Origin: an uncultured Gammaproteobacteria bacterium
GTDB taxonomy: Bacteria > Pseudomonadota > Gammaproteobacteria > Arenicellales > Poriferihabitantaceae
Length of the DNA stretch: 64,000 nt
Direction of reading: 5' to 3'
Assembly: GCA_937992195.1 (NCBI GenBank)
Contig: CALKKV010000007.1
Span: 21,581-85,580, forward strand
The notes under the pieces are model-generated. The model did no database searches, was not told the origin of the DNA, and was given only the letters and a program-made list of their open reading frames with translations. The position numbers and the translations under genes were made by a program. Below, piece by piece: positions 12,643 to 30,104 of this stretch. Numbering within the stretch: position 1 is the stretch's first letter; the number at the start of each line of letters is the position of its first letter.

Positions 12643-12719
12643 TTGGATTAAAGTTAATCTTTTTGATTGTTTGTCGGCAGGCTTTACAAGTGGATACCAG
12701 CGCAGTATGCTTCTTCTGG

Positions 12720-12737
12720 TATTTGGTATACCAAATA
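12720..12737. promoter_or_regulatory. 18-bp perfect palindrome TATTTGGTATACCAAATA; candidate GntR/FCD operator upstream of tctC
   Basis: Read directly from the sequence, 40 bp upstream of the tctC ATG. The core GGTATACC/TGGTATACCA fits the GT-Nx-AC type palindrome used by GntR-family regulators. It is related to the sites at 16154 and 27857. A degenerate copy, TGGATACCA, lies at 12691-12699. Confidence 0.55.
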
Positions 12738-12776
12738 TCAATATTCTAAAAATTAACCTCCAAAGGAGAGTAGAAC

Positions 12777-13784
12777 ATGAAGCTCGTACTAGAATCACTT
12801 AAGAAAGCTGCAATTCCTGCAGTGGTAGCCGCTGCGACAACGTTGGGATTGTCAGCACCTGCTATGGCAGAATGGTCTCCAAAGAAACCAGTGGAACTCA
12901 TCATCATGGCTGGAGCCGGTGGTGGTGCTGATCAGATTGCACGTTTACTACAAGGTTTGATTGAAACCAAAAAACTTTCTCCGCGACCTATTATTCCAAT
13001 AAACAAAGCTGGTGGTTCCGGTGCTGAAGCATTGCGATATATCCAGGATAAGAAAGGCGATGACCATACTATTCTTGTTACGCTCAATAGCTTTTATACC
13101 ACCCCGGTAATTCAAAAGGGTATCGGTGTGGATGTCAGTAACTTCACTCCTATTGGCCGGATGGCAGTTGATAACTTCCTGCTTTGGGTAAACAGTGAAA
13201 TGACAGATATCACTGATCTCGATAGCTACGTTGCGGCAGTAAAAGCTGCAGGTACAGGCTGGAAGGTTGGCGGAACGGGCACAGGTCAGGAAGACTCTAT
13301 TCTTACTGCAATGATGGAAAAAGAGTTTGGTTATGACGTAACCTATATTCCATTTCCTGGTGGCGGAACGGTAGCGAAGAATCTGGTGGGTAAGCACATT
13401 GACTCTACGGTAAACAATCCGGCTGAGCAAAGTGAGTTTTTCCGCGCTGGAAATACCAAGCCTCTAGTTCAATTCACCGCAGAGCGTTTACCTGCATACC
13501 CTGATGTTCCTACAGCGAACGAGTTAGGCGTAAACATGGAGTATTACATGCAGCGCTCTATCAATGGACCTCCAGGAATGTCTGCTGAAGCACAAGAGTG
13601 GTATATCAACCTGTTTGAGCAGCTGTTCAATTCTGAAGAATGGCAGAAGTTCTGTGTAGAAGATGGACTTGCATGCGACACCTATCTTTCAGGTGATGCA
13701 CTGGGTCAATATCACCAGGATCAAATTGCATTGCACAAAGAGCTGATTGAATCAGTGGGTGCATCTGCAATTACCGGAGAATAA
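12777..13784 (+). CDS. tctC: tripartite tricarboxylate transporter (TTT) periplasmic substrate-binding protein, TctC/Bug family
   Basis: 335 aa. Signal peptide ending PAMA-EW, then PVELIIMAGAGGGADQIARLL and NKAGGSGAEA, typical of Bug/TctC proteins. Followed by tctB and tctA. Confidence 0.9.
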   Translation: MKLVLESLKKAAIPAVVAAATTLGLSAPAMAEWSPKKPVELIIMAGAGGGADQIARLLQGLIETKKLSPRPIIPINKAGGSGAEALRYIQDKKGDDHTILVTLNSFYTTPVIQKGIGVDVSNFTPIGRMAVDNFLLWVNSEMTDITDLDSYVAAVKAAGTGWKVGGTGTGQEDSILTAMMEKEFGYDVTYIPFPGGGTVAKNLVGKHIDSTVNNPAEQSEFFRAGNTKPLVQFTAERLPAYPDVPTANELGVNMEYYMQRSINGPPGMSAEAQEWYINLFEQLFNSEEWQKFCVEDGLACDTYLSGDALGQYHQDQIALHKELIESVGASAITGE

Positions 13785-13808
13785 TTCTCCGCTATCGGTG
13801 GATTTGTT

Positions 13809-13924
13809 GTCGTCAGCAGCGGCTGAAATTTAAGGCTGCTGCTTTACGACAGCAATCATACTGATTGCTTCATACCGTTAGTCGGCATACTCGCTGCACA
13901 CAGGGAGTATGCCGCTAGCAATCA
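13809..13924 (+). other. structured intercistronic region between tctC and tctB (several stem-loops with alternative pairings)
   Basis: Stem 1 is GTCGTCAGCAGC (13809-13820) with GCTGCTG..ACGAC (13835-13850). Stem 2 is a 10-bp perfect stem, CGGCATACTC (13883-13892) with GAGTATGCCG (13905-13914). TGATTGCT (13862-13869) is complementary to both AGCAATCA copies (13851-13858 and 13917-13924). Confidence 0.5.
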
Positions 13925-14000
13925 ACATCAACCCTGCTTTTTTCGAGTGTGAGCTCGATGACAAGAAAGTTACGTCTGCATTTTGATAGAGATTGGTTAA

Positions 14001-14510
14001 ATGACTGTAAGAACTGCTGAAATCTGTATGGCCATTCTATTGGCGCTGTGTTCAATTGCCTTGATGTTCAAGAGCGCCGAGCTAAAGATTGGTTGGGTGC
14101 CTGAAAGAGGACCCGGGTCCGGAGCGTGGCCATTTTGGCTTTCAGCCGGCATGTTGCTGACGTGTCTCGCGACTATCTACCGCTGGTTCAAGGGTGTCAC
14201 TCCTGAGTCGAAGAACCTCGAGCCGTTTATGACTAAGGATACGATTTTGGTAGTGGGGGTTTCTGCGGGTTCAATTTTATTCTTGCTGGCTGCGACGCAC
14301 TTTGTGGGTATCTATATTGCGCTGTTTTTTTTCTTATTGTTCTATCTAAGATTTATTGGGCACCATAGCTGGTTGCTAACTATTGTGATGGTGATAGTTG
14401 TGCCAATTATTGTTTTTTGCTTGTTTGAATGGGCATTAAAAATTCCATTACCGAAAGCGATCACTGAAGAATGGTTTTATCCAATCTATGATTTGATGTA
14501 TTCCTACTAA
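14001..14510 (+). CDS. tctB: TTT transporter small membrane subunit TctB
   Basis: 169 aa with 4 predicted TM helices. Its position between tctC and tctA matches TctB-family size and topology. Confidence 0.8.
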   Translation: MTVRTAEICMAILLALCSIALMFKSAELKIGWVPERGPGSGAWPFWLSAGMLLTCLATIYRWFKGVTPESKNLEPFMTKDTILVVGVSAGSILFLLAATHFVGIYIALFFFLLFYLRFIGHHSWLLTIVMVIVVPIIVFCLFEWALKIPLPKAITEEWFYPIYDLMYSY

Positions 14511-14580
14511 TATTTATTCGTTGATTTACAAACACCAACGTAAAACTATTTTCCATCAACATTATTCGTAAAACAAAACA

Positions 14581-16104
14581 ATGGAAGAGATACTGATTCA
14601 TCTTGGAGGCGGACTTGCACAAGCAATGGAGCCGCTGAACTTCACCATGATTATCCTTGGCTGTATGCTGGGGCTGTTGATTGGCGCGATGCCTGGGCTT
14701 GGTTCTGTAAACGGCGTTGCGATTCTGTTGCCGATCACTTTTCTTGTGCCGCCAACAGCCGCTATTATTTTTCTCGCAGCTATTTACTATGGTGCAATGT
14801 ACGGCGGTGCGATTAGTTCGATTACGCTTGGTATACCCGGGGCTTCCACTGCGGTAGCAACGGTGTTTGACGGTAGGCCGTTAGCGCAAGCCGGCCATGC
14901 CGATCGAGCGTTAACCGCTGCTGCTGTCGCTTCATTTATTGGTGGCACGATTTCAGTTGTGTTATTCACTTTATTTGCGCCGCCGCTTGCAGCATTTGCC
15001 CTTAGGTTTGGTCCTGCGGAAGAGTTCGCGTTAATGCTTTTAGCGTTCGCGACGTTTATCGGCTTGGGCGGTGATGATATTCCAAAAACAGTGTTTTCAA
15101 TTTTGATCGGTCTGGTCCTGGCTACGGTCGGTCTGGATATTATTTCCGGACAGCCGAGATTGATTTTTGGCGATATAGATGGATTTCTCCACGGTATTAA
15201 TTTCCTTGTTTTAGCAATTGGAATTTATGGTATCGGAGAGATGCTTTGGACTTTGGAAACTACCCAGGGAAAAGTAACTGTCCACAAAGTGAAAATGTCG
15301 GTCTCTCAGATGAAAAGGAATTTGGGTGATGTAAAACAATATATCGGTACTACCTCACTTGGATCTGTACTGGGTTACTTTGTTGGTACCTTGCCTGCAG
15401 CGGGTGCAACCCCTGCATCGCTAATGTCTTACGGACTTGCGAAGACTTTTTCAAAAGATCCCGAGAGTTTTGGTAAGGGTAATATTGCTGGCGTCGCAGC
15501 ACCTGAGGCTGCAAATAATGCGGCATCAACTGGCTCGATGTTGCCGATGATTACCCTCGGTATTCCTGGATCTCCGACTACAGCTATTTTGCTTGGTGGC
15601 ATGATTATTTGGGGACTGAGACCTGGTCCACTTTTATTTACCGAAAACCCTGAGTTTGTATGGGGGTTGATTGGATCATTGTATATTGCAAATTTGGCGA
15701 CGGTTATCATAAATATTGCGTTTATACCTCTGTTTGTGAAGGTGTTAACTTGTCCGTTTACGATTCTTGCGCCAATTATTTATATCCTTTGCGTGGTAGG
15801 CGGGTATGCGCCGACACAAACTATGCACGATGTTTGGCTTATGCTGCTGTTTGGCATTGTTGGCTATCTACTGAGGAAACTTAATTATCCCGTTGCTCCG
15901 GCTGTGTTGGCGATTGTTTTAGGACCATTAGCGGAGCGTTCCCTTAGACAGTCGCTGCTATCTTCTCAAGGCGAGCTTTCTATCTTTGTTACACGCCCGA
16001 TATCAGCAACCTGTATTGTTATTGCCTTGGCTTTGGTTTTCTATCCGGTATACAAAAAGTTTTCGAATAAACGCGCTGCGGATATGCCGGCGGCGAGCGG
16101 CTAA
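14581..16104 (+). CDS. tctA: TTT transporter large permease subunit TctA
   Basis: 507 aa polytopic protein. GAMPGLGSVNGVAILLP, YYGAMYGGAISSI and GIPGSPTTAILLGG are conserved TctA blocks. Confidence 0.92.
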   Translation: MEEILIHLGGGLAQAMEPLNFTMIILGCMLGLLIGAMPGLGSVNGVAILLPITFLVPPTAAIIFLAAIYYGAMYGGAISSITLGIPGASTAVATVFDGRPLAQAGHADRALTAAAVASFIGGTISVVLFTLFAPPLAAFALRFGPAEEFALMLLAFATFIGLGGDDIPKTVFSILIGLVLATVGLDIISGQPRLIFGDIDGFLHGINFLVLAIGIYGIGEMLWTLETTQGKVTVHKVKMSVSQMKRNLGDVKQYIGTTSLGSVLGYFVGTLPAAGATPASLMSYGLAKTFSKDPESFGKGNIAGVAAPEAANNAASTGSMLPMITLGIPGSPTTAILLGGMIIWGLRPGPLLFTENPEFVWGLIGSLYIANLATVIINIAFIPLFVKVLTCPFTILAPIIYILCVVGGYAPTQTMHDVWLMLLFGIVGYLLRKLNYPVAPAVLAIVLGPLAERSLRQSLLSSQGELSIFVTRPISATCIVIALALVFYPVYKKFSNKRAADMPAASG

Positions 16105-16153
16105 CAGAAATTTTATTAATGTTGAATTCGAAACATAAATCTCGGATGCAGTC

Positions 16154-16170
16154 TTGTATACAATATACAA
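16154..16170. promoter_or_regulatory. palindromic operator TTGTATACAATATACAA in front of the GntR-ThDP enzyme-frc operon
   Basis: 7-bp inverted arms TTGTATA/TATACAA with a 3-bp spacer. TTGTATACAA is itself a perfect 10-bp palindrome. The 15-mer GTATACAATATACAA (16156-16170) recurs exactly at 27862-27876. The site lies 47 bp upstream of the likely ATG of the GntR gene. Confidence 0.6.
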
Positions 16171-16216
16171 GCCACTGGAGCTGTTGAAATTCTTTTATGG
16201 ATGCGAACAAATAAGA

Positions 16217-16918
16217 ATGTCGGAAGACAAACCAACAATCGGCAGTTTGAAACCTCTGGATCTCTATCCTGGATTAAAAGACGCGGTATACCAATCGCTA
16301 AGGGATGCGATTTCCGAGATGGATATTTACTCCGGAATTGAACCTCCGAAATTGGATGAGCGGAAGCTTGCGGAGGAGCTTGGTGTCAGTAGAACGCCAG
16401 TGCGGGAAGCCTTGAGCCGACTAGAACAGGAGGGCCTGGTTGTGACGTATCCACGTCGTGGTGCTTTTGTAGTACGGAAAACTAAAAAAGAAATTATAGA
16501 AATTGTTACGGTATGGGCCGGACTTGAAGGAATGGCTGCGAGACTGGTGACTGAGAATGCCAGTGATCAGGAAATTTCATCGATGAGGGAAATGTTCTCC
16601 ACTTTTGACGCGAGCAATGAAGCGAGAGCGCATATAGACGAGTATTCAAGCACCAATATTGCTTTTCATCAGAGACTGATTGAGTTGAGCAAATGCAAGC
16701 TGTTGATAGATATCGCTGAAAGCTTGTTTGTCCATATGCGCGCGATTCGTCGAAAGACAATTAGCGAGCGAGATCGGGCAACAGAATCGATTATTGACCA
16801 TATGCGGATCATCCAAACGCTTGAATTGCGGGATGCCACGATGGCAGAACAACTGGTTAGAGAACACGCTATGTATTTAGCGGACCATATTAAGAAGTAT
16901 GTTGATTACTTGGATTGA
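16217..16918 (+). CDS. GntR family transcriptional regulator with FCD ligand-binding domain
   Basis: The winged HTH LDERKLAEELGVSRTPVREALSRLEQEGLV is followed by an all-helical FCD-type C-terminal domain (FHQRLIELS...). The start is taken at ATG 16217 because the longer TTG-start ORF (16154) begins inside the operator palindrome. Confidence 0.85.
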   Translation: MSEDKPTIGSLKPLDLYPGLKDAVYQSLRDAISEMDIYSGIEPPKLDERKLAEELGVSRTPVREALSRLEQEGLVVTYPRRGAFVVRKTKKEIIEIVTVWAGLEGMAARLVTENASDQEISSMREMFSTFDASNEARAHIDEYSSTNIAFHQRLIELSKCKLLIDIAESLFVHMRAIRRKTISERDRATESIIDHMRIIQTLELRDATMAEQLVREHAMYLADHIKKYVDYLD

Positions 16919-16951
16919 AAACACACTGAAAACACAAATTGGACAGAACTA

Positions 16952-18688
16952 ATGACAAATAAATCAGATACCGCGCATGATACTTTGGCGCAGAAAGACA
17001 AAAGCGGCAGCGTAATTTCCGGTGGCCACCTGGTTGCCAAAGCGCTAAAGAATGAAGGGGTTGACACCGTCTTTACCCTGTGTGGTGGACATATCATCGA
17101 TATTTATGACGGCTGCATTGATGAAGGTATACGTATTGTAGATGTGCGCCACGAGCAAACCGCAGCCCATGCCGCGGATGGCTATGCGCGACAAACTGGA
17201 AAGCTGGGTTGTGTGGTAACAACTGCGGGGCCAGGATGTACCAATGCAGTGACAGGTGTTGCTACCGCATTTCGTTCAGAAAGTCCTATCTTGCATATCG
17301 GTGGTCAAAGTTCGTTGACCCAACATAAGATGGGGTCGCTACAAGACTTGCCTCATGTTGACATGATGACACCGATTACCAAGTTTGCTTCGGGTGTGTT
17401 CTCTACAGAGCGTGTTGCCGATATGGTTTCGATGGCTGCACGAGAGTGCTTTAATGGCGCTTATGGCCCGTCATATCTCGAAATTCCAAGAGATGTTCTC
17501 GATCGTGAAGTACCGATTGAGTCTGCGACTATTCCTGCGCCGGGATCGTATCGTGCTTCTGTGAAGTCGATTGGTGATCCTGCGGATATTGAAAAACTTG
17601 CCGATATATTGGTCAAAGCGGAACGTCCTGCGGTACTTTTTGGACAGCAGGTTTGGGCTTCCCAAGGACACCATGAGGCGATTCAGTTTGTCCGTGATTT
17701 GGATATTCCCGCTTATATGAACGGCGCTAGTCGGGGCATGTTGCCAAATGATGATCCGCACCATTTTGATCGCACGCGTCGTGACGCCTTCAATAATGCG
17801 GATGTCATTCTTATCGTTGGAACACCGTTCGATTTTAGAATGGGTTATGGCAAGCGAATTTCGAGCAAAGCGACTTTGGTGCAAATTGATCAAAGTTACA
17901 ACACGGTTGGAAAGAATAGAGATATCGACTTAGGAATTGCAGGTGATCCAGGTGCAATATTGGCTGCTGCAGCCCAGGCCGCCAGCGGTCGTATCGACAA
18001 TGGTGCCAAGAAAAAGCGACAGGCCTGGATGAAAGAACTTCGAGAGATCGAGGTAACCAAGCTAGAGAAACTTATGCCGATGTTTACTACCGATCAAAAT
18101 CCGATCCATCCGTATCGGTTGGCCTATGAAATTAATGAGTTTCTCGGAGACGATACAATTTATATCGGCGATGGCGGTGACATCGTAACCATCTCGGCGC
18201 AGGCGGTGAGGCCACGCAATCCTGGGCAGTGGATGGATCCTGGTGCACTGGGTTCTCTGGGTGTTGGAACTGGATTTTCCATGGCGGCAAAGCTTGCGCA
18301 TCCCGATAAAGAAGTGGTTTGCTTATACGGTGATGGCTCTTTTGGTATGACTTCTTTTGATATGGAAACGTCTCAGCGATTTGGTGCGCCGTATCTCGCG
18401 ATTGTTGGAAACAACAGTCATATGAATCAAATTCGATATGGCCAGATTGCAAAATATGGAGAAGAGCGCGGAAACATTGGAAACAAGCTCGGCGACATTC
18501 CTTTCGGTCAGTTTGGTGAAATGATCGGCGGCTATGGAGAAGAGGTAAGAGAAGCCAGCGAAATTCAGCCTGCGCTAAATCGTGCCCGTGAAGCAATTGC
18601 GAAAACAGGAAAATGTGCGGTTGTGAATGTTTGGGTAGATCCTGACGAGTATGCTCCGGGAACCAAAGCGCAAACTATGTACAAGTAA
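16952..18688 (+). CDS. thiamine-diphosphate-dependent enzyme; probable oxalyl-CoA decarboxylase or 2-hydroxyacyl-CoA lyase (specificity inferred from context only)
   Basis: 578 aa with the three-domain ThDP fold. It has an N-terminal Pyr domain (RHEQTAAHAADGYAR, TAGPGCTNAVTG) and a C-terminal PP domain with the ThDP/Mg motif GDGSFGMTSFDMETSQRFGAPYLAIVGNN. Located immediately upstream of frc. The N-terminal blocks look more acetolactate-synthase-like than the OXC sequences I recall. Confidence 0.6.
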   Translation: MTNKSDTAHDTLAQKDKSGSVISGGHLVAKALKNEGVDTVFTLCGGHIIDIYDGCIDEGIRIVDVRHEQTAAHAADGYARQTGKLGCVVTTAGPGCTNAVTGVATAFRSESPILHIGGQSSLTQHKMGSLQDLPHVDMMTPITKFASGVFSTERVADMVSMAARECFNGAYGPSYLEIPRDVLDREVPIESATIPAPGSYRASVKSIGDPADIEKLADILVKAERPAVLFGQQVWASQGHHEAIQFVRDLDIPAYMNGASRGMLPNDDPHHFDRTRRDAFNNADVILIVGTPFDFRMGYGKRISSKATLVQIDQSYNTVGKNRDIDLGIAGDPGAILAAAAQAASGRIDNGAKKKRQAWMKELREIEVTKLEKLMPMFTTDQNPIHPYRLAYEINEFLGDDTIYIGDGGDIVTISAQAVRPRNPGQWMDPGALGSLGVGTGFSMAAKLAHPDKEVVCLYGDGSFGMTSFDMETSQRFGAPYLAIVGNNSHMNQIRYGQIAKYGEERGNIGNKLGDIPFGQFGEMIGGYGEEVREASEIQPALNRAREAIAKTGKCAVVNVWVDPDEYAPGTKAQTMYK

Positions 18689-18810
18689 CGTACAGAAGTT
18701 CGTAAAGAACGGACCCGGTAACGAGATTGAGGCCGAGTCCTTCATGCAATGTGATTCCTGATTTGGAATACACACAACAGATTAACTAATTCCCATTTTG
18801 GAACGAGATT

Positions 18811-20055
18811 ATGAAAGCGTTAGACGGTATCAAGATACTTGATTTCACCCATGTGCAGTCGGGTCCAACCTGCACGCAATTGCTCGGCTGGTTCGGTGCT
18901 GACGTAATTAAGGTGGAACGTCCCGGTGTTGGTGATGCAACGAGAAAGCAGCTCATCGACAAGCCCGGTTCCGATTCACTGTATTTCACCATGTTGAATC
19001 ATAACAAACGCTCTTTGACGCTCAATACCAAGACTGATGATGGCAAAGAAGTTTTGGAACGGCTGATCAAAGAATGCGATGTCATGGTGGAAAACTTTGC
19101 ACCGGGAGCACTTGATCGAATGGGATTTACCTGGGAGCGAATTCAGGAGCTGAACCCGAAGATGATTATGGCTTCGGTAAAGGGTTTTGGACCTGGTCCT
19201 TATGAAGACTGCAAGGTGTATGAAAACGTTGCGCAATGTGCGGGTGGTGCGGCATCGACAACAGGCTTTCGTGATGGGCCGCCGCTGGTAACGGGCGCGC
19301 AAATTGGCGATTCCGGGACAGGGTTACACCTGTGCCTTGGAATCGTGACCGCTTTATTTCAAAGAGAACGGTCGGGGCGCGGACAAAAGGTATTAGCGCC
19401 AATGCAGGACAGTGTACTGAACTTATGTCGGGTCAAACTTCGCGATCAGCAGAGACTGGATGCCGGACCGTTAAAAGAATATTCGCAATTTGGTGAAGGC
19501 GTTGCTTTTGGTGAAGCAACTCCGCGGGCAGGAAACGATTCCGGCGGAGGTCAACCGGGTCGAATTTTGAAATGCCTTGGTTGGGAAAATGATCCAGATG
19601 CCTATACCTACTTCATCACCCAAGCCGCGGTGTGGAAAAATATTTGTGATGTGATTGGCAAGCCCGAGTGGAAGGACGATCCCGACTATGCGACTCCAGA
19701 TGTTAGATTAAATAAGCTCAATGAAATATTTGACACCATTGAAGCCTGGACAATGACGAAAGACAAGTTTGACGTGATGGATATTTGTAACCCGTTGAAT
19801 ATTCCAGTGGGCCCGATTTTGTCGATGAAAGAGTTGGCTGAAGAACCCGCCTTGCGTGACACCGGCACTATTGTTGAAGTGGATCATCCTGAACGCGGTA
19901 AGTATTTAACAGTGGGTTGCCCGGTTAAGCTTTCTGATTCTGAAGTGGACGTTACGCGATCGCCATTATTAGGAGAGCATTCTGAAGAAGTTTTAGCAAT
20001 GCTTGGTTATTCAGAAACCGATATTAGCGCAATGCGTGAATCAGGCGCTATTTAG
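18811..20055 (+). CDS. frc: formyl-CoA:oxalate CoA-transferase (family III CoA-transferase)
   Basis: 414 aa. Long colinear blocks match recalled Oxalobacter Frc: [107 protein letters not shown]. Confidence 0.88.
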
Positions 20056-20066
20056 GAGAATATAAA

Positions 20067-20978
20067 ATGAGAATTGTCGTACACGGCCAGCAGGCTTTCG
20101 GTGAAGCAGTGTTGCAAAAGCTGCTGGATAACAAAGAAGATATTGTTGCGGTTTGTACTGCGCCGGATAAAGAAGGAAGCCCAATAGACCCGTTGAAGCA
20201 GCTTGCATTGGATAATAATCTTCCAGTGCATCAACCCGCTTCATGGAAAACACCTGAAGCGGCAGAATTGATGCATTCTTTTGAGGCCGATGTATGCATG
20301 ATGGCTTATGTCCTGTTGTTCGTGCCATCAGAAGTATTAAACATCCCAAAACATGGGTCATTCCAGTATCATCCGTCCTTGCTGCCGATGCACAGGGGGC
20401 CATCGTCTATAAACTGGCCGATCGCCACAGGGGCTGTCAAAACAGGACTCACTATTTTTTGGCCAGATGATGGTCTTGATGAAGGTCCTATTCTGTTGCA
20501 AAAGACTTGCGACATCGGTCCGGATGAGACCCTAGGTGATGTTTACTTTAATAAGCTATTCCCAATGGGCGTAGACGCCATGATCGAGTCTCTTGATCTG
20601 GTGAAGCAGGGGACTGCGCCAAAAGTGGTCCAAGATCTGTCACAGGGCTCATATGAGTCGTGGTTTGGTAAAAACGAGGCGAAGTTAGATTGGTCACAAC
20701 CGGCGCACCAGGTTTATAACGTTATCCGAGCTGCAAATCCTCAACCTTCGGCCTGGACCACCCATGACGGCAATATTTTAAAGCTGTTCGATAGCCGTGT
20801 TGGCAATGGCAAGGGTGAGCCTGGAGAGGTGGTGAAAGCTAGCGGCAATGAGATTGAAATTGCGGCAGCAGAGGGTTCTATCATTGTAAGCAGAGTGAGG
20901 GCAGATGCCGGAAAAGTCTCTGCTGAAGACTATATAGCCGAAACTGGATTAAAAGCAGGTGCGCGACTGGGCACCTGA
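20067..20978 (+). CDS. formyltransferase-fold protein resembling the N-terminal hydrolase domain of 10-formyltetrahydrofolate dehydrogenase
   Basis: 303 aa. It aligns colinearly with recalled FDH N-terminal domain: GQQAFGEAV, PDKEGSPIDPL, the HG..YHPSLLPMHRGPSSINW catalytic His block, TIFWPDDGLDEGPILLQK with the catalytic Asp, and a C-terminal Fmt-like beta-barrel region. It has no dehydrogenase or ACP-like domains. Confidence 0.75.
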   Translation: MRIVVHGQQAFGEAVLQKLLDNKEDIVAVCTAPDKEGSPIDPLKQLALDNNLPVHQPASWKTPEAAELMHSFEADVCMMAYVLLFVPSEVLNIPKHGSFQYHPSLLPMHRGPSSINWPIATGAVKTGLTIFWPDDGLDEGPILLQKTCDIGPDETLGDVYFNKLFPMGVDAMIESLDLVKQGTAPKVVQDLSQGSYESWFGKNEAKLDWSQPAHQVYNVIRAANPQPSAWTTHDGNILKLFDSRVGNGKGEPGEVVKASGNEIEIAAAEGSIIVSRVRADAGKVSAEDYIAETGLKAGARLGT

Positions 20979-21108
20979 TAGAGAGTTCGACACAGTTACT
21001 TTGAAGATTCAAGGCAACTGCGAGAAAACGAAATGATGTTGAGGGCGTAAGATAAGTTGATGCCCTCTACATGATACTTAACTGCTGGAACTAAAAAGAG
21101 AAATACCA

Positions 21109-22776
21109 ATGAGTGATATTGAGATCGCACGAAAGGCGACGATTAAACCTATCGGTGAAATTGCCAAGCGATTGGATATTCCAAACGAAGCGTTAGCACC
21201 ATTTGGACATACCAAAGCAAAAGTAAACCTTGAGTATATTGATACCTTAAAGGATAAGCCTGATGGCAAGCTGATTCTGGTCACAGCGATTACACCAACG
21301 CCCGCTGGCGAAGGTAAAACCACGACTTCAGTTGGATTAACCGATGGCCTAAATAAAATTGGCAAAGATGCGATGGTTTGCCTACGTGAACCTTCTCTAG
21401 GACCGTGTTTCGGAATGAAAGGTGGTGCCGCCGGTGGTGGTCATGCTCAGGTAATTCCTATGGAGGATATCAACCTTCACTTTACCGGAGACTTTCACGC
21501 AATCACATCTGCGCATAGTTTATTGTCTGCGCTAATCGACAATCATATATATTGGGGTAATGAGGCAGGAATTGATACTCGTCGTGTTGCCTGGAGAAGG
21601 GTGGTCGACATGAATGACCGCTCACTTCGTCAAATCACCAGCTCCCTTGGTGGTGTATCAAATGGTTTCGCTAGAGAAGATGGTTTCGATATCACAGTAG
21701 CTTCGGAAGTAATGGCTATTTTTTGTCTGTCTAAGGATCTCGAAGATCTGCAGCAGCGGCTGAGTAAAATTGTGATCGGATATACCCGTGATAGAAAACC
21801 AATTACTGCTGATGCGGTTTCTGCGCCGGGACCAATGACCGTGTTGTTAAAAGATGCACTTGCTCCGAATCTGGTGCAAACATTGGAACACAATCCTGCG
21901 TTTATTCATGGTGGACCGTTTGCCAATATAGCCCACGGCTGTAACTCTGTGATCGCAACGAAAACTGCGTTGAAGATGGCGGATTATGTGGTGACTGAAG
22001 CCGGTTTCGGCGCTGATTTGGGTGCGGAAAAATTTCTTGATATCAAGTGTCGGAGCGCTGGTTTAGCGCCTGATGCTGTTGTGATCGTTGCCACGGTGCG
22101 TGCCTTGAAAATGCATGGCGGTGTGGGCAAAGACGATTTAGGAAACGAAAACGTTCAAGCGGTGAAAGACGGTTGCGTAAATCTACAAAGACATGTTGAA
22201 AATGTAAAGTCATTTGGGGTGCCTGTGGTCGTTGCAATCAACCGCTTTAGCGCTGACACCGACGCTGAAATGGCCGCGGTTAGAGAAGTTGCTGACGGCC
22301 TTGGCGTTAAGGCAATTGACGCAACCCATTGGGCAGATGGTGGTAATGGCACAACCGAGCTTGCCGAGCATGTTGCTGGTTTGGCTGACAGTGGCGAAGG
22401 TGACTTTTCGCATCTCTATCCATCGGAAATGCCGCTTTGGGAAAAGATTGAAACCATTGCAACCAAGATATATCGCGCAGACGGTATTGCGGCGGATCAG
22501 AAAACAAAAAATCAGATCAAAGATTTGCAGGATGGTGGCTTTGGTAATCTGCCTGTTTGTATTGCCAAGACGCAATATAGTTTTTCTGATGACCCAAGCA
22601 AAAAAGGTGCACCTACGGGACATACTTTACCGGTTCGAGAAGTCAGATTGTCAGCGGGAGCGGGTTTTATTGTTGCCGTGTGCGGCGACATTATGACAAT
22701 GCCTGGTTTACCTCGGGTGCCTGCAGCAAACAGTATTCGTATGAACGATGCTGGACAAGTTGAAGGGTTGTTCTAA
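21109..22776 (+). CDS. fhs: formate-tetrahydrofolate ligase (10-formyl-THF synthetase)
   Basis: 555 aa. [16 protein letters not shown]-loop, [34 protein letters not shown]. Confidence 0.96.
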
Positions 22777-22824: not shown

Positions 22825-23688
22825 ATGTCGATTCATGCTATTTTGGTCCCCACCGATGGTGGGGACTCACTTCCTAATTTACTCGAAGCGGCGCTGGTCG
22901 TAGCGCGACGTTTCGAAGCACATATCTCGGTTCTGCTGGTTTCTGAGCGGAAAATCAAAAAATCCGCGACCAAAGAGATTTCTAAAGAGCTGCGCAAGAA
23001 CCTGATCGATGAGGAAATGAGTATTCTCACCGGAGTGGCTTCCGAAACAGAGCAGCTAGTGGAAGCGTTTTCCAAACGTCGACGAATTGAATTGACAGAC
23101 CGTCCGATGAAGCAATCTGGCGTAAGTATTTCCTTTCACCATGAAAGGGGAAAGGCGACAGAAATTATGGTTCACTGGTCTAGGATGTTTGACACTACGG
23201 CGGTCATGCGACCAACCTTTAAAAGCGGTTTAGGTTGGCGCAAGGCAAGCAAGCGCTATCATGAATCTATCATGATGCAATCCGGTAGGCCGGTACTCTT
23301 GGTTCCTCCGAAATGGGACGTGCATAAAGCGCAACATGCTGTAGTTGCATGGAATCACAGTTTGGAAGCATCTCGAGCTGTTGCGATGACTTATCCTTGG
23401 CTGGTCCAAATGAAAAAAGTGACTTTAGTCGTTCCCAAAGCTTCTTTGGCCGATGGAGAAAAACTGGTTGAGAATCTGGCATGGAATGGTGCCAACGCAG
23501 AATTAATGCCACTCAACAGACGAACTTCTTCTGTTGGAAGAAGGTTGCTAAAGATCTGTGACAACATTGGTGCTGACTTTCTTGTTATGGGGGGATATAG
23601 CCATTCAAGAGTAAAAGAACGGGTTTTTGGCGGCACCACGGAATACGTGCTGCAAAACAGTCAGATTATCACTGTCATGGTGCATTGA
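22825..23688 (+). CDS. universal stress protein, tandem USP domains
   Basis: 287 aa. ILVPTDGGD at the N-terminus, a second USP repeat beginning HAVVAWNHS, and ADFLVMGGYSHSRVKERVFGGTTEYVL (USP ATP-binding G-2x-G-9x-G[ST]) at the C-terminus. Confidence 0.8.
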   Translation: MSIHAILVPTDGGDSLPNLLEAALVVARRFEAHISVLLVSERKIKKSATKEISKELRKNLIDEEMSILTGVASETEQLVEAFSKRRRIELTDRPMKQSGVSISFHHERGKATEIMVHWSRMFDTTAVMRPTFKSGLGWRKASKRYHESIMMQSGRPVLLVPPKWDVHKAQHAVVAWNHSLEASRAVAMTYPWLVQMKKVTLVVPKASLADGEKLVENLAWNGANAELMPLNRRTSSVGRRLLKICDNIGADFLVMGGYSHSRVKERVFGGTTEYVLQNSQIITVMVH

Positions 23689-23817: not shown

Positions 23818-24822
23818 ATGAAGATCTGTGTTGTCGGCGCCGGCGCAATCGGTGGCTTTATGGGGGCGCGTTTAGCCCAGTATGATCATGAAGTATCATT
23901 AATCGCAAGAGGACCGCATCTTGCCGCGATTAAAGCAAATGGTCTCAGGCTAGTGCAGGATGGCGAGGAGATTGTCGCTAAAAATGTTGTTGCCACCGAT
24001 GATATTGCCGAGCTGGGTGTTCAGGACGTCGTATTGATGGCGTTGAAGTCTCACCAAATACACGCTGTCTTGGACAAATTACCCAATATAATTGGCCCTG
24101 AGACCGTAATGGTAACTTTGCAAAATGGAATTCCCTGGTGGTATTTCCAAAAGCTGTCGGGCGACTACGAGAATAGAATTGTAGAGACATCGGATCCTGG
24201 TGGTGTACTTGCAAAAACGATCAATCCTGATTGTTTGATTGGCTGTATCGCCTATCCGGCGGCAACGATTTCTGAGCCCGGTGTTATCCAGCATATTGAG
24301 GGCGTACGGTTTCCCATTGGAGAGTTAGATGGTAGTCAGTCCGCTAGAGCCCAAAAAATTGCAGAAGCGTTTGTAGAAGCTGGATTCAAGTCTCCGGTAT
24401 TGGATGACATTCGTTCCGAGATCTGGCTCAAATTATGGGGCAATCTAACCTTTAACCCGATTAGTGCAATGACTCACGCAACACTGGAGGCAATCTGTCA
24501 ATTTCCACTAACTCGCGAAACCGCAGCGACCATGATGAGCGAAGCACAACAGGTCGCTGAACAGCTGGGTGCCAGCTTTCGGGTGTCATTGGAACGGCGG
24601 ATTGAGGGTGCCGAAAAAGTCGGGAAACATAAGACTTCAATGTTGCAAGACGTTGAAGCGGGTAAACCGCTGGAAATTGATGGAATGCTTGGCGTTGTGA
24701 TTGAGCTTGCTGATATGACTGCGATCCCTGTTCCAACTCTGAAGGCGGTATATGCCTGTGTATCTCTGTTAAACCATACAATGGCTGAGCAAGGTATACG
24801 CATAGAAGGCACTACTGTTTAG
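23818..24822 (+). CDS. ketopantoate reductase (PanE/ApbA) family oxidoreductase; physiological substrate uncertain
   Basis: 334 aa. N-terminal Rossmann MKICVVGAGAIGG, LQNGI, and KTSMLQD in the C-terminal ApbA domain. Only 24 bp separate it from aceK. Confidence 0.8.
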   Translation: MKICVVGAGAIGGFMGARLAQYDHEVSLIARGPHLAAIKANGLRLVQDGEEIVAKNVVATDDIAELGVQDVVLMALKSHQIHAVLDKLPNIIGPETVMVTLQNGIPWWYFQKLSGDYENRIVETSDPGGVLAKTINPDCLIGCIAYPAATISEPGVIQHIEGVRFPIGELDGSQSARAQKIAEAFVEAGFKSPVLDDIRSEIWLKLWGNLTFNPISAMTHATLEAICQFPLTRETAATMMSEAQQVAEQLGASFRVSLERRIEGAEKVGKHKTSMLQDVEAGKPLEIDGMLGVVIELADMTAIPVPTLKAVYACVSLLNHTMAEQGIRIEGTTV

Positions 24823-24846: not shown

Positions 24847-26583
24847 ATGCCAAATAATGAAGTCAAAATAGCAGAGGAAGCCGGCAGCGCCGCTAAGTTG
24901 GTCCATGACCAGTTTATGCGGTTCTATCAAGAGTTTCGGCAGATACCGGATCAAGCCAAGCTCGCATTTGAAAGTCGAGATCATCAAGAATCTCTTAACC
25001 TGAGCAGCCGGCGCCTGCGTTTATATAGTATTAGCATTCGCGCAGTAGGTGAGCAAATCAAAAAGCAGCTCACTTGTCTCAGTGATTCCGAGGCCCATTG
25101 GCAGCTGGTCGAATCGCAATATCGAGATAGTGTTGCGAATGAGTACTTTGCTGACCTCTCTATGGCGTATTTACACTCGATTCGACGAAAAATCTATCAA
25201 GGAGAGTGGCGAGCCGAGGATTACACGTTATATAGAAGTAAGTACCAAACCGATAGCGATTTCCAGGATGATGTTGACCGTTATCCGGTTACGAGAACAG
25301 AGTTATCAAGTGCGACAGAAAAAATTCTTGAAGCAGCAGGATTCAATATTCCTTATGAAAACTTGCATAGAGATATTGGGAAACTTGCGGAACGCGCGCA
25401 GAGGAATCTCGGCGGCAGAGCCGACGTGGAAAGCGATTTTGAAATTGAGATGTTTCGTGCAATTTTTTTTCGCAATCGCGGTGCGTATTTAGTTGGTCGT
25501 GCAGTATTTCGTTCCGGGAGAATTCAACCCCTGATTATTGCACTGTTAAATGGTGAAGATGGAATCTACGTAGACGCTTTAATTACCAGCAGAACCTACG
25601 CTCACAATATGTTCAGCTCGACCTTGGCGAACTTCCATGTGACGAATGAACATTACCATGAGCTTTGTCGCTTCTTGCGCAGCATTATGCCTTCCAGGCC
25701 GTTGGGGTTACATTATTCTACTGTGGGGTATAACCATCTAGGGAAGGTTGCCGTGATGAACGAAATGGAAGAAGAGTGGGAGAAGTTTGGTGACACGATG
25801 TCGGTTGCTCCCGGCACTCCCGGAACCGTTGCCATAGGATTCTGCATGCCTGACTCAGCTTATGTTTTAAAAGTAGTCAGAGATAAACCTACCGAAGGAT
25901 ATAAATGGGGAGAGTTTAGTGGCGTAGAGTCTGTCTTAAGAAAGTATAACCAGGTGCATGAAATCAATCGTACGGACAGTATGTTGGATAGCATTGTCTA
26001 CTACAATTTTCGATTACGCCTTGACTGGTTTACAGATGATTTGAAAGAGCAGTTGTTGGATCAGGCTGGTGGTAGCGTTCGGGTCGACAATCAAGATCTT
26101 GTATTCAAATACTTGATCGTGCAAAGAAAGCTAACACCACTACCAATTTATCTCGAGACGGCGAGTGAAAAACAACAGCAAACAGTAATGGTGAATCTTG
26201 GATACTGCATTCGCAATAATGCGGCAGGAAATATTTTTAACCGAGATCTTGATGCGCGGAACTATGGCGTGTCGTCCATGAGTAAAGTGTATCTATTTGA
26301 CTATGATGCAATCGAACCATTGACCGAGATAAAAGTCAGAACCAACCTTGATCGTATTGATGGTGAAGAAGATATACCTGACTGGTATTTCGAAGATGGC
26401 GTCATTTTTCTTCCAGAAGAGCTGACTACTGGACTCTGTTTGCCGTTTCGTGAGTTACGAAGATTGTTTTCGGACGAACACAAGCAGTTACATACCGTGG
26501 ATTATTGGGAATCTATCCAGAAAGACTTGAATAATAATATTGTGCCATCGGTGAGTGTTTATCCCGATAGCGAAAGGCTGTGA
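24847..26583 (+). CDS. aceK: isocitrate dehydrogenase kinase/phosphatase
   Basis: 578 aa, colinear with E. coli AceK. Examples: FFRNRGAYLVGR vs FYRNKAAWLVGK, the kinase region VLKVVRDK, NIFNRDLDARNYGV, and VYLFDYDAI vs VVFYDYDEI. Confidence 0.92.
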   Translation: MPNNEVKIAEEAGSAAKLVHDQFMRFYQEFRQIPDQAKLAFESRDHQESLNLSSRRLRLYSISIRAVGEQIKKQLTCLSDSEAHWQLVESQYRDSVANEYFADLSMAYLHSIRRKIYQGEWRAEDYTLYRSKYQTDSDFQDDVDRYPVTRTELSSATEKILEAAGFNIPYENLHRDIGKLAERAQRNLGGRADVESDFEIEMFRAIFFRNRGAYLVGRAVFRSGRIQPLIIALLNGEDGIYVDALITSRTYAHNMFSSTLANFHVTNEHYHELCRFLRSIMPSRPLGLHYSTVGYNHLGKVAVMNEMEEEWEKFGDTMSVAPGTPGTVAIGFCMPDSAYVLKVVRDKPTEGYKWGEFSGVESVLRKYNQVHEINRTDSMLDSIVYYNFRLRLDWFTDDLKEQLLDQAGGSVRVDNQDLVFKYLIVQRKLTPLPIYLETASEKQQQTVMVNLGYCIRNNAAGNIFNRDLDARNYGVSSMSKVYLFDYDAIEPLTEIKVRTNLDRIDGEEDIPDWYFEDGVIFLPEELTTGLCLPFRELRRLFSDEHKQLHTVDYWESIQKDLNNNIVPSVSVYPDSERL

Positions 26584-26993: not shown

Positions 26994-27779
26994 TTAGCTG
27001 TCGATGAAAACATTCTCTAAAGTACCAACGCCATCTATCTCTATGCGCACAGTCCAACCGTCTTTCATTGCGCCAGCGCCCACAGAAGTGCCGCAAGCAA
27101 TCACGTCGCCAGGATAGAGCGTCATATCATGAGAAATCTTACTGACGATTTCATAGGGTTTGAAAAACATATCGCTGACAGGATAATTTTGTCTTTCTTG
27201 TTCCTGATCATTTCCACACATATAGGTGCGTATAGATAGTGCATCTGGCTCGATATCGGTTGTAATGCCCGGTCCAAATACCCCAAATCCATCAAACCCC
27301 TTTGCTCTGGTCCAATGGGCAAAGTCATCTTCGTTGAACAAGTACTCGAGTGCGGTGACATCGTTGATGCAGGTGTATCCGAAAATAGAGTCGGCCACGT
27401 TGTCTAAACTCATGTTTTTACATTCCTTGCCAATGACAATACCAAGCTCTCCCTCGAAAAGAATTTTGCCTTCGCAAATTTCGGGTTTATAGATGTTGCT
27501 GTTTGCAGGTGCGTAGCTATTTGGCGTTTTCACGAAATACCAAGGGTGTTCCGGTTTTGGCAAACCTGATTTTTCAGCAGTCGCAGTAAAGTTATTCCAG
27601 AGTGCAAGGAACTTAGAAGGCGAACACGGGGTAAGTAGCGTCACGTCCGCGTAGTTAACAGATTCATTGGTAGCTTGATTTTCACCGAAGATATCACCTT
27701 CATAAATCTCGATAACATCTTGATTTAGAATACCTATTTTTGTTTTTCTGTTGTGCTCAAATCGAATCCAGGTGCGCAT
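26994..27779 (-). CDS. fumarylacetoacetate hydrolase (FAH) family protein
   Basis: 261 aa. EGELGIVIGK, YTCINDVTA, AKGFDGF and PGDVIACGT are FAH-fold metal and substrate blocks. Confidence 0.8.
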   Translation of the reverse strand: MRTWIRFEHNRKTKIGILNQDVIEIYEGDIFGENQATNESVNYADVTLLTPCSPSKFLALWNNFTATAEKSGLPKPEHPWYFVKTPNSYAPANSNIYKPEICEGKILFEGELGIVIGKECKNMSLDNVADSIFGYTCINDVTALEYLFNEDDFAHWTRAKGFDGFGVFGPGITTDIEPDALSIRTYMCGNDQEQERQNYPVSDMFFKPYEIVSKISHDMTLYPGDVIACGTSVGAGAMKDGWTVRIEIDGVGTLENVFIDS

Positions 27780-27856: not shown

Positions 27857-27878
27857 TTTTGGTATACAATATACAAAA
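27857..27878. promoter_or_regulatory. operator-like element TTTTGGTATACAATATACAAAA in the FAH/sucC divergent intergenic region
   Basis: It contains the same 15-mer, GTATACAATATACAA, as the site at 16156-16170. The imperfect inverted arms are TTTTGGTATA/TATACAAAA. It lies 78 bp upstream of the FAH gene start and 185 bp upstream of sucC. Confidence 0.55.
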
Positions 27879-28062: not shown

Positions 28063-29232
28063 ATGAATATTCATGAATATCAAGCCAAGCAGCTATTAGG
28101 CGAGTTTGGTGTAGCAGTTCCTCGGGGCAAGGTAGCCTTTAGCGTCGATGATGCAGTTTCTGCCGCAGAGGAGCTAGGTGGCTCAATTTGGGTTGTCAAA
28201 GCACAAATACACGCCGGTGGTCGGGGCAAGGGCGGTGGCGTAAAAGTGGTGGACTCAATGGATAAATTGAAATCTACCGCTGAGGAGATCTTAGGTATGC
28301 AGCTAGTGACCCACCAGACGGGTCCAGCTGGGCAGGAAGTTAAGCGTATCTATATTGAAGAGGGGTGCGATATCGCGAGAGAGCTATATCTTGGTTTATT
28401 GATTGATCGAGCGACCAGTCGTGTAACGATTATTGCTTCTACAGAAGGCGGTATGGATATCGAGGAAGTTGCGGCGAATACCCCTGAGAAAATCATTACC
28501 GTAGTGATTGATCCGGCAATAGGTCTTCAGTCTTTCCATGCAAGGCGACTTGCCTTCGGTCTGGGTCTTGAGGGCGCACAGGTGAAGTCAGCAGTAAAGT
28601 TTTTAACGGCGATGTATAGGTCATTTATGGATCTAGATGCCAGTATGGTAGAGATCAATCCGTTGGTTGTGAAAGGTGACGGTGACCTGATTGCACTGGA
28701 TGCAAAAATGAACTTCGATAGCAATGCGCTTTACCGTCATCCGAATGTCGAAGAATTACGAGATGAGGACGAAGAAGATCCAGCGGAATTAGAAGCGGCG
28801 AGTCATGAGCTGAATTATATAAAGCTGGATGGTTCAATTGGTTGCATGGTCAACGGTGCTGGCCTTGCGATGGCAACTATGGACATTATTCAGCTTTATG
28901 GAAGTTCTCCGGCAAACTTCCTAGACGTCGGTGGTGGAGCAACCACAGAACGAGTGACTGCGGCATTCAAAATTATTCTTTCTGATGACAATGTTAAAGG
29001 TATTTTGGTAAACATATTTGGCGGTATTATGAAATGTGATGTCATCGCTGAGGGCATTGTCGCAGCGGCAAAACAGGTTGAGCTGGATGTGCCGTTGGTT
29101 GTGCGTTTAGAAGGAACCAATGTCGATCTTGGTAAGAAGATTCTGGCGGATTCGGGGCTTCCGATTCTGTCCGCAGATAATCTGGCAGATGCTGCCGAAA
29201 AGGCAGTAAAAGCTGTCAAGGAGGCTGCGTAA
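28063..29232 (+). CDS. sucC: succinate-CoA ligase (ADP-forming) beta subunit
   Basis: 389 aa. [72 protein letters not shown]. Confidence 0.9.
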
Positions 29233-30104
29233 TGGCTGTTTTAATCGATAAAAATACCAAGGTAATCTGCCAGGGTTTCACTGGTTCAACCGCGACTTTT
29301 CACAGCGAACAAGCGATTGAATACGGTACCAAGATGGTGGGTGGGGTTGTTCCCGGAAAGGGGGGCATGACCCATCTTGGTCTTCCAGTTTTTGACACAG
29401 TGGTAGGGGCTAAAGAAAAAACAGAAGCAAATGCTTCGGTCATTTATGTGCCGCCGCCATTCGCGACAGACGCGATCATGGAAGCCATCGATGCAGAAAT
29501 TGAGCTGATCGTTTGCATTACAGAAGGCGTTCCGGTTCTGGATATGGTGAAGGTAAAACGGATGCTTGAAGGTAGCAACAGTCGTCTGGTTGGACCCAAC
29601 TGTCCCGGTGTGATTACGCCAGACGCCTGCAAGATTGGAATTATGCCTGGGCATATCCACAAGAAAGGTAACGTAGGGATCGTTTCTCGGTCCGGCACCC
29701 TTACATACGAAGCAGTAGCGCAAACTACCGCGGCCGGAATGGGTCAAAGTACTTGTATTGGCATTGGTGGTGACCCGGTCAATGGCACCAACTTTATTGA
29801 CTGTCTTGAGATGTTTTTGGGAGACGATGAAACCGAGTCCATCATTATGATTGGTGAAATCGGCGGCACTGCAGAAGAAGAAGCTGCGGAATTCATCAAA
29901 CAAAACAAAGTAAAGAAACCGATGTGTGGTTTTATTGCCGGTGTGACCGCGCCTCCGGGGCGGCGTATGGGGCACGCTGGTGCAATTATTGCAGGCGGCA
30001 AGGGAAGCGCAGGCGATAAAATCGAGGCGATGCAGTCTGCCGGCATTCAGGTTGCGGATTCACCTGCTTCTTTAGGAACTACACTAAAGAAGGCATTGTC
30101 GTAA
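29232..30104 (+). CDS. sucD: succinate-CoA ligase alpha subunit
   Basis: 290 aa. [34 protein letters not shown] and the phosphohistidine loop MGHAGAII. The ATG overlaps the sucC stop. Confidence 0.92.

Follow-up and report, generated by a model that had tools for sequence, protein, structure and literature searches.

How might a bacterial locus that encodes a formyl-CoA:oxalate CoA-transferase cleave its substrate when its decarboxylase candidate lies outside the oxalyl-CoA decarboxylase (OXC) family, and what might be the role of the formyltransferase-like protein that is encoded immediately after the transferase? These questions are raised by a 64,000-nucleotide stretch of DNA from an uncultured gammaproteobacterium (contig CALKKV010000007.1, positions 21,581 to 85,580), referred to below as the window, in which a run of genes encodes the three components of a tripartite tricarboxylate transporter (TTT) called TctC, TctB and TctA, a GntR-family regulator, a thiamine diphosphate (ThDP) enzyme which we call type A, the transferase (Frc), a formyltransferase-like protein which we call FmtL, and formate-tetrahydrofolate ligase (Fhs). 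An initial annotation made from the sequence alone had described these eight genes as co-directional; this is borne out, since all eight open reading frames (ORFs) lie on the plus strand between positions 12777 and 22776 and belong to the families it had given.

The explanation proposed here is that the region represents a widely conserved locus for oxalate uptake and utilization in marine proteobacteria, which, taken as a whole, we regard as on balance probable. The oxalate pathway that frames this explanation is itself textbook material. The most novel part of the proposal, and the part most worth testing, is the hypothesis for FmtL. In its joint form, in which FmtL would be a free-standing, reversible bridge between 10-formyl-tetrahydrofolate (10-formyl-THF) and CoA, the bacterial counterpart of a domain that was fused into ALDH1L1, and would operate beside an independently recruited decarboxylase of non-OXC origin, the hypothesis is put forward tentatively, as a possibility that may well prove wrong.

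Conservation of the gene order and the ThDP slot

Genomes scanned with FmtL yielded 80 loci at species level (63-87% identity), and their neighbouring genes were assigned by tblastn with the window proteins. The initial annotation had suggested looking for the gene order in related genomes, and the order GntR-ThDP-Frc-FmtL(-Fhs), accompanied by TctCBA, recurs in about 80 species of two classes: among the Gammaproteobacteria in Arenicellales, Granulosicoccaceae and Poriferihabitaceae, and among the Alphaproteobacteria in Filomicrobium/Hyphomicrobiaceae, Rhodobacteraceae, Aurantimonas, Pelagibius, Puniceispirillum, Kiloniellaceae and Geminicoccaceae. Since the same order is found in so many species, the arrangement is not due to chance. 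Of the 80 loci, 79 have frc directly 5' of fmtL; gntR is conserved directly 5' of the ThDP gene, and TctCBA is found near the cluster in every locus, upstream in the Gammaproteobacteria and downstream in most Alphaproteobacteria. In roughly half of the loci fmtL is followed by fhs, and many loci of type A have no adjacent fhs. The nearest relatives of the window are metagenome-assembled genomes (MAGs) labelled Arenicellales or Acidiferrobacterales, and cultured carriers include Filomicrobium insigne (type A) and Breoghania sp. L-A4 (type B, defined below).

The slot between gntR and frc is occupied by one of two different enzymes. In 32 loci it holds a type A protein, 77-96% identical to that of the window, and in 30 it holds a protein of type B, which is 22-26% identical to the window enzyme; no locus holds both. 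Type B is the canonical OXC (approximately 1005 bits for NF006721 and 980-997 bits for TIGR03254). Species of each type occur within the single family Granulosicoccaceae, and the identities of the partner proteins track taxonomy and not the type of ThDP enzyme: between gammaproteobacterial loci of type A and type B the identity is 83.6% for Frc, 74.3% for TctC and 82.7% for TctA, as against 84.7%, 73.6% and 81.4%, respectively, within gammaproteobacterial type A. The active-site motifs of Frc are identical letter for letter in loci of the two types, and the cultured Breoghania sp. L-A4 has the order TctCBA-GntR-OXC-Frc-FmtL-Fhs with a TctC that is 77.5% identical to that of the window.

Since the two enzymes share a slot and are accompanied by partners that are equally alike, the simplest reading of these data is that OXC has been exchanged in place for a paralogous ThDP enzyme which has the same job and the same substrate, and an in-place replacement of this kind argues for oxalate, rather than a 2-hydroxy acid, as that substrate. 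With gene context alone as the basis, we consider it likely that the type A enzyme decarboxylates oxalyl-CoA using a differently built active site.

One locus (L094, 4085-17755) contains a tandem duplication of the cluster on a single contig: one copy, TctCBA-GntR-ThDP-Frc, breaks off into gene fragments, among them a remnant of AceK, and is followed by a second, TctCBA-GntR-ThDP.

Evidence for oxalate as the substrate

The initial annotation had aligned Frc with the formyl-CoA transferase of Oxalobacter, and the alignment holds up under profile and sequence comparison: in addition to the equivalog-level model match (Table 1), the protein scores 568 bits against E. coli YfdW and 522 bits against O. 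formigenes FRC. The GDSGTG motif with the catalytic Asp169 is present, as is the glycine loop (GGGGQ), whose first Gly is replaced by Ser in loci of both types. Judged by these matches, Frc is a bona fide, equivalog-level member of the formyl-CoA:oxalate CoA-transferase family.

A PanE/ApbA-family protein encoded downstream of the eight genes matches PanE2 of Methylorubrum extorquens over its full length (52% identity, 360 bits, E 3e-129; reference WP_015822665, with the sequence taken from the supplement of PMC12686821), which is a characterized oxalyl-CoA reductase. Homologues are found in at least 15 loci, and the window protein is a probable NADPH-dependent reductase converting oxalyl-CoA to glyoxylate. 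By homology, the combination of Frc, formate dehydrogenase, Fhs and a PanE2 homologue reproduces the M. extorquens oxalate scheme, which has been reviewed (PMC13409138). The initial annotation had left the choice between oxalate and a 2-hydroxy acid open; oxalate is now largely favoured by the presence of OXC in the equivalent slot and by the PanE2 homologue, while the 2-hydroxy acid has lost ground because a catalytic glutamate of the lyase reaction is absent (see below). Uptake by a TTT system, which had also been claimed, agrees with the joint presence of PF03401, PF07331 and PF01970, and oxalate would be the ligand of TctC.

The formyltransferase-like protein

The best solved relatives of FmtL are the hydrolase domains of 10-formyl-THF dehydrogenase (FDH) from zebrafish, rat and human, at 200 bits, followed by methionyl-tRNA formyltransferases (Fmt) at 154 bits, ArnA at about 90 and HypX at 37. 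The protein is 41% identical to the N-terminal domain of FDH and 33% identical to E. coli Fmt, so its earlier description as a formyltransferase resembling the FDH N-domain stands, although its public name is “methionyl-tRNA formyltransferase”. It falls below the Fmt cutoff (146.7 bits against 201.5 for TIGR00460), has no def gene as a neighbour, and lacks loop 1 of Fmt (PAGRGKKLMPS in E. coli), with a deletion of 5-6 residues at this point, as in FDH. We take loop 1 to be a tRNA-recognition element, on the basis of the Fmt-tRNA structure. The residue two positions before the catalytic His is Gln in FmtL, Ile in FDH and Asn in Fmt. The His106/Ser108/Asp142 triad defined for the FDH N-domain (PMC6802093) corresponds to H102, S104 and D138 of FmtL, which do not vary among 68 homologues. 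Of the 303 positions of FmtL, 110 are invariant, and the folate-site segments that FmtL has in common with FDH are highly conserved. An AlphaFold model (pLDDT 85) has the fold of FDH, Fmt and ArnA.

In ALDH1L1, the FDH N-domain transfers the formyl group of 10-formyl-THF to the 4'-phosphopantetheine thiol of a carrier domain, and the N-domain of HypX has been proposed to carry out the same transfer to CoA, giving formyl-CoA (PMC6802093). Since both compounds would be made by the neighbours of FmtL, formyl-CoA by Frc together with the decarboxylase and 10-formyl-THF by Fhs, we infer that FmtL is a reversible formyl-CoA:THF (10-formyl-THF:CoA) formyltransferase, which would employ the same His/Ser/Asp chemistry as the N-domain of ALDH1L1, with its pantetheine thiol, and as that proposed for the N-domain of HypX, with CoA. 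FmtL would thus probably link formyl-CoA to the folate C1 pool. The earlier observation that the operon continues into folate C1 genes is confirmed by the Fhs match (Table 1); the FDH-N-like protein would be more than a generic element of the C1 capture, which had been assigned to formate-THF ligase.

The likely direction of the reaction is indicated by a cluster variant without frc, which was found through a look-up of type A homologues that was independent of FmtL. This lineage, which is abundant (40 and 88 index blocks), has the order TctCBA-ThDP-FmtL-AceK-amidase (loci L083-L085 and L091-L093, e.g. L083 4675-12550; one of the MAGs is labelled Candidatus Thioglobus); frc, gntR, fhs and panE are all absent within 17.7 kb. 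Its ThDP enzyme, FmtL and TctC are 88.5%, 55.6% and 72.6% identical, respectively, to those of the window. The retention of FmtL beside the ThDP enzyme where Frc is missing suggests that FmtL consumes formyl-CoA, the product of the ThDP enzyme, which favours the capture direction. The net reaction would most likely run from formyl-CoA to 10-formyl-THF, in which case the C1 unit would be kept without expenditure of ATP, or ATP would be gained through the reversal of Fhs.

An alternative which we regard as unlikely, though it has several points in its favour, is that FmtL is simply a hydrolase, acting either on 10-formyl-THF in a PurU-like role or on formyl-CoA (EC 3.1.2.10), with the resulting formate passing to formate dehydrogenase. 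On its own, the FDH N-domain hydrolyses 10-formyl-THF in vitro (PMC8748788), formyl-CoA hydrolase is an activity without an assigned gene (PMC10192776), formate dehydrogenase genes lie nearby, and the frc-less clusters need a sink for formyl-CoA. The in-vitro activity of the FDH domain, however, depends on thiols added at high concentration (PMC8748788), so that it can be understood as being really the formylation of a thiol, and a 10-formyl-THF hydrolase placed beside Fhs would create an ATP-wasting cycle. In addition, the conservation of the folate-site segments argues for THF as a substrate of FmtL.

We give rather less credence to the idea that FmtL works mainly from 10-formyl-THF and CoA towards formyl-CoA, forming with Fhs an ATP-driven synthetase that refills the Frc/decarboxylase cycle. 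Both precedents, HypX and FDH, run in this direction, the PanE2 homologue is co-located, fhs follows fmtL in the half of the loci noted above, and a cycle that loses oxalyl-CoA to glyoxylate would be expected to need an input of thioester. Against this, FmtL is retained in the frc-less clusters, where the synthesis of formyl-CoA is of no obvious use; transfer from a thioester to the N10-formyl position should be downhill, according to our own estimate from group-transfer potentials; and fhs does not adjoin fmtL in many type A loci.

The type A enzyme and its relatives

The type A enzyme is below every NCBIfam cutoff in the profile search. Its scores are 449 bits against a cutoff of 587 for PRK05858, an “acetolactate synthase” model, 356 against 600 for NF058623, the model of 2-hydroxyacyl-CoA lyase (HACL) from actinobacteria, and 299 against 538 for biosynthetic acetolactate synthase (TIGR00118). 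Its public names are “acetolactate synthase” and “thiamine pyrophosphate-binding protein”. It evolves very slowly, with 365 of 578 positions invariant across the two classes, and it has a family-specific C-terminal tail, DPxEYAPGTKxQTMYK.

A search of 1.84 billion cluster representatives found its nearest full-length neighbours to be 64%, 51%, 51% and 45% identical, all of them below the curated cutoffs. In a tree built with a fast distance method, the type A enzymes form a clade with the 64% relative and the two 51% relatives (30/30 bootstrap), apart from both the actinobacterial lyase (AcHACL) and OXC; this clade is near AcHACL and PRK05858. The genes of the 64% relative and of one 51% relative are also followed by frc, and that of the other 51% relative adjoins an AMP-ligase gene; the more distant relatives P0124 and P0128 lie on contigs that are too short or have a different gene context. 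The profile and phylogeny that had been suggested for this protein thus place it outside the biosynthetic acetolactate synthases and separate from OXC and AcHACL, which agrees with the earlier characterization of the enzyme as a non-canonical decarboxylase or lyase. The remark that its N-terminus differs from the VVGIPIT type of OXC and HACL is also upheld, with FTLCGGHIIDIYD in the window at the position of YGVPGIPITD in the canonical OXC of sister loci.

With AcHACL and PRK05858, its closest solved structure and closest curated models, the type A enzyme shares an FxLxGGHI N-terminal block and the active-site residues L-Q, and it differs from them in being below both cutoffs, in having NQIRY for NIERY, in its own tail and in its separate clade. 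The partner gene is also different, being frc for type A and an acyl-CoA ligase for AcHACL. An improbable alternative is that the enzyme is a 2-hydroxyacyl-CoA lyase, in which case, by analogy with the oxalate cycle, Frc would use formyl-CoA to activate a 2-hydroxy acid such as glycolate or lactate, and formyl-CoA and an aldehyde would be released. Among solved structures, the best relative is the actinobacterial lyase, at 269 bits, followed by the HACL/S enzymes at 242 and the true OXCs at 151-167, and Q128 of AcHACL, which contacts the acyl carbonyl, is kept (MGSLQD aligns with MGPLQD). The catalytic acid/base Glu493 of AcHACL, however, aligns with Ile, with Gln at position 492 (NQIRY against NIERY), so that type A has no counterpart of the residue that serves as acid/base catalyst in the lyase reaction. 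This loss is common to most of the uncharacterized neighbours and is not confined to type A, and it therefore counts against AcHACL-type chemistry without counting specifically for decarboxylation. The lyase alternative is further opposed by the canonical OXC that occupies the same slot among equally similar partners, by the equivalog-level match of Frc to oxalate Frc, by the oxalyl-CoA reductase homologue in the locus, and by the clustering of neighbouring ORFs, in which no conserved aldehyde-handling gene was found. The residues of AcHACL that contact CoA were also compared and were not used as evidence: R273 aligns with Arg and R362 with Lys, and the rest fall in indels or in the unaligned lid.

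That the ThDP enzyme is instead an acetolactate-synthase-type carboligase and FmtL a second methionyl-tRNA formyltransferase, adjacent to each other without meaning, is suggested by their public names but is very improbable and largely refuted by gene context, given the score for TIGR00118, the failure to find an ilvN-like small-subunit ORF among the window neighbours, the sub-cutoff Fmt match with loop 1 missing and no def neighbour, and the synteny with frc that is conserved across two classes.

Proposed pathway

In the pathway proposed for the locus, oxalate would be taken up via TctCBA and converted by Frc, with formyl-CoA, to oxalyl-CoA, which the type A enzyme, acting in place of OXC, would cleave to formyl-CoA and CO2. 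A share of the oxalyl-CoA would be reduced to glyoxylate by the PanE2 homologue for assimilation, with AceK, encoded next door, tuning the isocitrate branch point, and formate would be oxidized by formate dehydrogenase or joined to THF by Fhs. SucCD, the universal stress protein (Usp) and AceK may likewise be involved in the oxalate pathway. When oxalyl-CoA drains to glyoxylate, FmtL could also run in reverse and, together with Fhs, act as an ATP-driven formyl-CoA synthetase that primes or refills the Frc/decarboxylase cycle. By our own reasoning, capture combined with the reversal of Fhs would be energetically equal to the Frc cycle, and the module would probably confer flexibility among formyl-CoA, 10-formyl-THF, and formate plus ATP.

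Several observations weigh against this explanation. The type A enzyme fails the OXC models, with 222 bits against a cutoff of 557 for NF006721 and, for the homologue at locus L037, 214 against 739 for TIGR03254. It also lacks the OXC motifs that contain Y120-E121, Y483 and S553/R555: GDYEE, NNGIY and ESGRI are present in type B, while the window protein has MGSLQD, NQIRY and APGTKAQTMYK at these places. We take Y120, E121 and R555 to be oxalyl-binding positions. Residues Y483 and S553 are described as oxalyl-binding in OXC (PMC8760513). The closest solved relatives of TctC, at only 78 bits, either have other ligands or bind none, and are too distant to suggest a ligand. For FmtL, Foldseek does not separate FDH-like structures (E 4.6e-31) from Fmt-like ones (6.6e-30), and in the capture direction FmtL, Fhs and Frc are stoichiometrically redundant. 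Finally, the frc-less clusters leave the activation of oxalate without an explanation; the ThDP/FmtL pair could act on something else there, or frc or another activating enzyme may be present elsewhere in the genome.

Comparison with known systems

The locus resembles the Frc/OXC and PanE2 systems of Oxalobacter formigenes, E. coli (yfdXWUVE) and Methylorubrum extorquens in having an equivalog-level Frc, an adjoining ThDP enzyme, a PanE2 homologue, and Fhs and formate dehydrogenase for the formate that is released. It differs from them in its decarboxylase candidate, which is not of the OXC family, in the use of a TTT system and not an OxlT antiporter for uptake, in an additional gene between frc and fhs, for an FDH-N-like formyltransferase, and in its regulation, which would be by a GntR/FCD protein with the candidate operator TGGTATACCA.

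FmtL is like the N-domain of FDH (ALDH1L1) in its identity, its two-subdomain fold, its His/Ser/Asp triad and its GQxxFG start, and unlike it in being a stand-alone protein of 303 residues without carrier or aldehyde dehydrogenase domains, whose thiol partner would be free CoA. The N-domain of HypX, the only protein for which a transfer of formyl from 10-formyl-THF to CoA has been described, as a proposal, is about 18% identical to FmtL. It is fused to an enoyl-CoA-hydratase-like decarbonylase that has CoA as a prosthetic group, and its context is hydrogenase maturation (CO for [NiFe]-hydrogenase), while that of FmtL is oxalate. Beyond the precedents of HypX and ALDH1L1, a literature search on formyl-CoA with 10-formyl-THF and on Arenicellales with oxalate returned nothing relevant, and no account was found of a substitute for the decarboxylase, of oxalate loci that encode a stand-alone FDH-N-like protein, or of a link between TTT systems and oxalate.

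Surveys of oxalotrophy that count oxc would miss organisms of type A, including the abundant marine Arenicellales and their relatives. Metatranscriptomes of hydrothermal plumes contain 183 frc transcripts and 13 oxc transcripts (PMC10192776, Table 1), a pattern that would be expected if a hidden non-canonical decarboxylase were in use. If the proposal is correct, much of marine oxalate turnover would proceed through two enzymes that are annotated “methionyl-tRNA formyltransferase” and “acetolactate synthase”, the ATP-free transfer of formyl between CoA and THF would be a new node of C1 metabolism, and the TTT family would gain a new small-dicarboxylate substrate. FmtL, plausibly a relative of the ALDH1L1 N-domain that exists as a free protein, would then also be directly useful for synthetic formyl-CoA pathways, which at present have no clean natural route to the folate pool.

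Candidate operator and promoter

The palindrome TTGGTATACCAA is placed between a promoter-like site and the start of tctC. Of 82 loci, 46 contain its core, TGGTATACCA, mostly just 5' of tctC or gntR, with both ThDP types represented among the clusters. A 10-mer would be expected approximately 0.02 times per 20-kb locus, so that the core qualifies as a conserved candidate operator of the FCD regulator. Through this palindrome, the gene set is probably controlled by the GntR/FCD protein. The core often faces divergent sucCD genes, and in other loci a divergent sucCD pair is separated from the cluster by a stretch that contains the exact operator. In the window a near-copy, TTGGTATACAAT, is found between a gene of the FAA-hydrolase family (26994-27779, minus strand) and sucC, which hints that SucCD and formate dehydrogenase belong to the same regulon. 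Promoter and terminator scans of the window gave nothing above shuffle expectation.

Extent of the locus and neighbouring genes

The features of the locus are listed in Table 1. The span given in the initial annotation is right for the eight genes but ends too early, since the co-directional, co-conserved set runs to 26583 and is followed, after two minus-strand genes between AceK and SucCD, by SucCD and formate dehydrogenase up to 34772.

Table 1. Features of the locus, with positions in the window
Feature	Position	Strand	Basis
Promoter-like site TTTACA-17-TATGCT, 5' of tctC	12683..12711	+	Consensus scan only; weak alone
Palindrome TTGGTATACCAA, candidate GntR/FCD operator	12723..12734		Core TGGTATACCA in sister loci
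TctC, periplasmic binding protein of TTT transporter	12777..13784	+	PF03401
TctB, small membrane subunit	14001..14510	+	PF07331
TctA, large membrane subunit	14581..16104	+	PF01970, 497 bits
GntR-family regulator with FCD effector domain	16154..16918	+	PF00392 and PF07729
Type A ThDP enzyme, 578 aa, three ThDP domains	16952..18688	+	Profile search; slot of canonical OXC
Frc, formyl-CoA:oxalate CoA-transferase	18811..20055	+	TIGR03253, 710 bits (cutoff 504)
FmtL, 303-aa stand-alone FDH-N-domain-like formyltransferase (Formyl_trans_N/C)	20067..20978	+	Homology; triad
Fhs, formate-tetrahydrofolate ligase	21109..22776	+	NF010030, 925 bits (cutoff 652)
Tandem universal stress protein (Usp), accessory	22825..23688	+	PF00582, two stretches
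PanE2-like protein, PanE/ApbA family, probable oxalyl-CoA reductase	23818..24822	+	52% identity to M. extorquens PanE2
AceK, isocitrate dehydrogenase kinase/phosphatase	24847..26583	+	PF20423 and PF06315
Near-copy of operator, TTGGTATACAAT, 5' of sucC	27859..27870		Comparison with exact operator
SucC/SucD-type ADP-forming CoA ligase pair	28063..30104	+	NF001913, 604 bits
NAD-linked formate dehydrogenase, NuoE/F-like subunit and molybdopterin alpha subunit	30330..34772	+	TIGR01591, 742 bits (cutoff 666)

Clustering of the neighbouring ORFs shows that SucCD-like pairs (35 loci), PanE-like reductases (15), AceK (14), formate dehydrogenase subunits (7-8 loci), Usp, isocitrate lyase and malic enzyme recur beside the cluster. 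The SucCD pair of the window scores 593.5 bits against a cutoff of 604 with the malate-CoA ligase model. AceK ends the oxalate cluster without aceB or aceA, and by tblastn it lies 3' of the cluster in most gammaproteobacterial loci, the frc-less ones included; genes for isocitrate lyase and malic enzyme are found a few kb away in sister loci (e.g. L003 14844-17504). The tandem Usp, which is kept inside the cluster in both classes and is 27-57% identical to its counterparts in distant loci, may be a regulator of the transporter or the pathway.

Three further kinds of protein accompany the cluster in other genomes. A conserved protein of 355 residues, which matches nothing in Pfam or NCBIfam and whose N-terminus, MKIMILGASYGS, is Rossmann-like, is encoded at L071 (2486-3553) and at 9 other loci, mostly with canonical OXC, and may take the place of the PanE2-like reductase where a cluster has none. 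A divergent pair, SucC'/SucD', which is not in the window, lies directly 5' of tctC in many gammaproteobacterial loci (L003 474-2628, L004, L005, L009, L012, L015, L022, L024 and L026); SucC' is 35.5% identical to the SucC of the window and below the succinyl-CoA ligase cutoff (363.6 against 370), and the pair might act as an ADP-forming ligase whose substrate is oxalate or some other acid. A conserved protein of about 600 residues with a P-loop-like motif, also not in the window and without a Pfam or NCBIfam match, is found in 12 loci (e.g. L080 16739-18541 and L095 13117-14922), where it follows tctA or the PanE2-like gene in clusters of both Alpha- and Gammaproteobacteria.

No pathway-related genes were found in the remainder of the 64-kb window, which contains an SPFH/TelA/XpaC-like stress cluster (45351-48534), an Abi_alpha abortive-infection-type protein (54100-55338), a MoxR-DUF58-VWA/TPR set (58017-63431), and a single tRNA gene, tRNA-Ser GGA (52625-52714).

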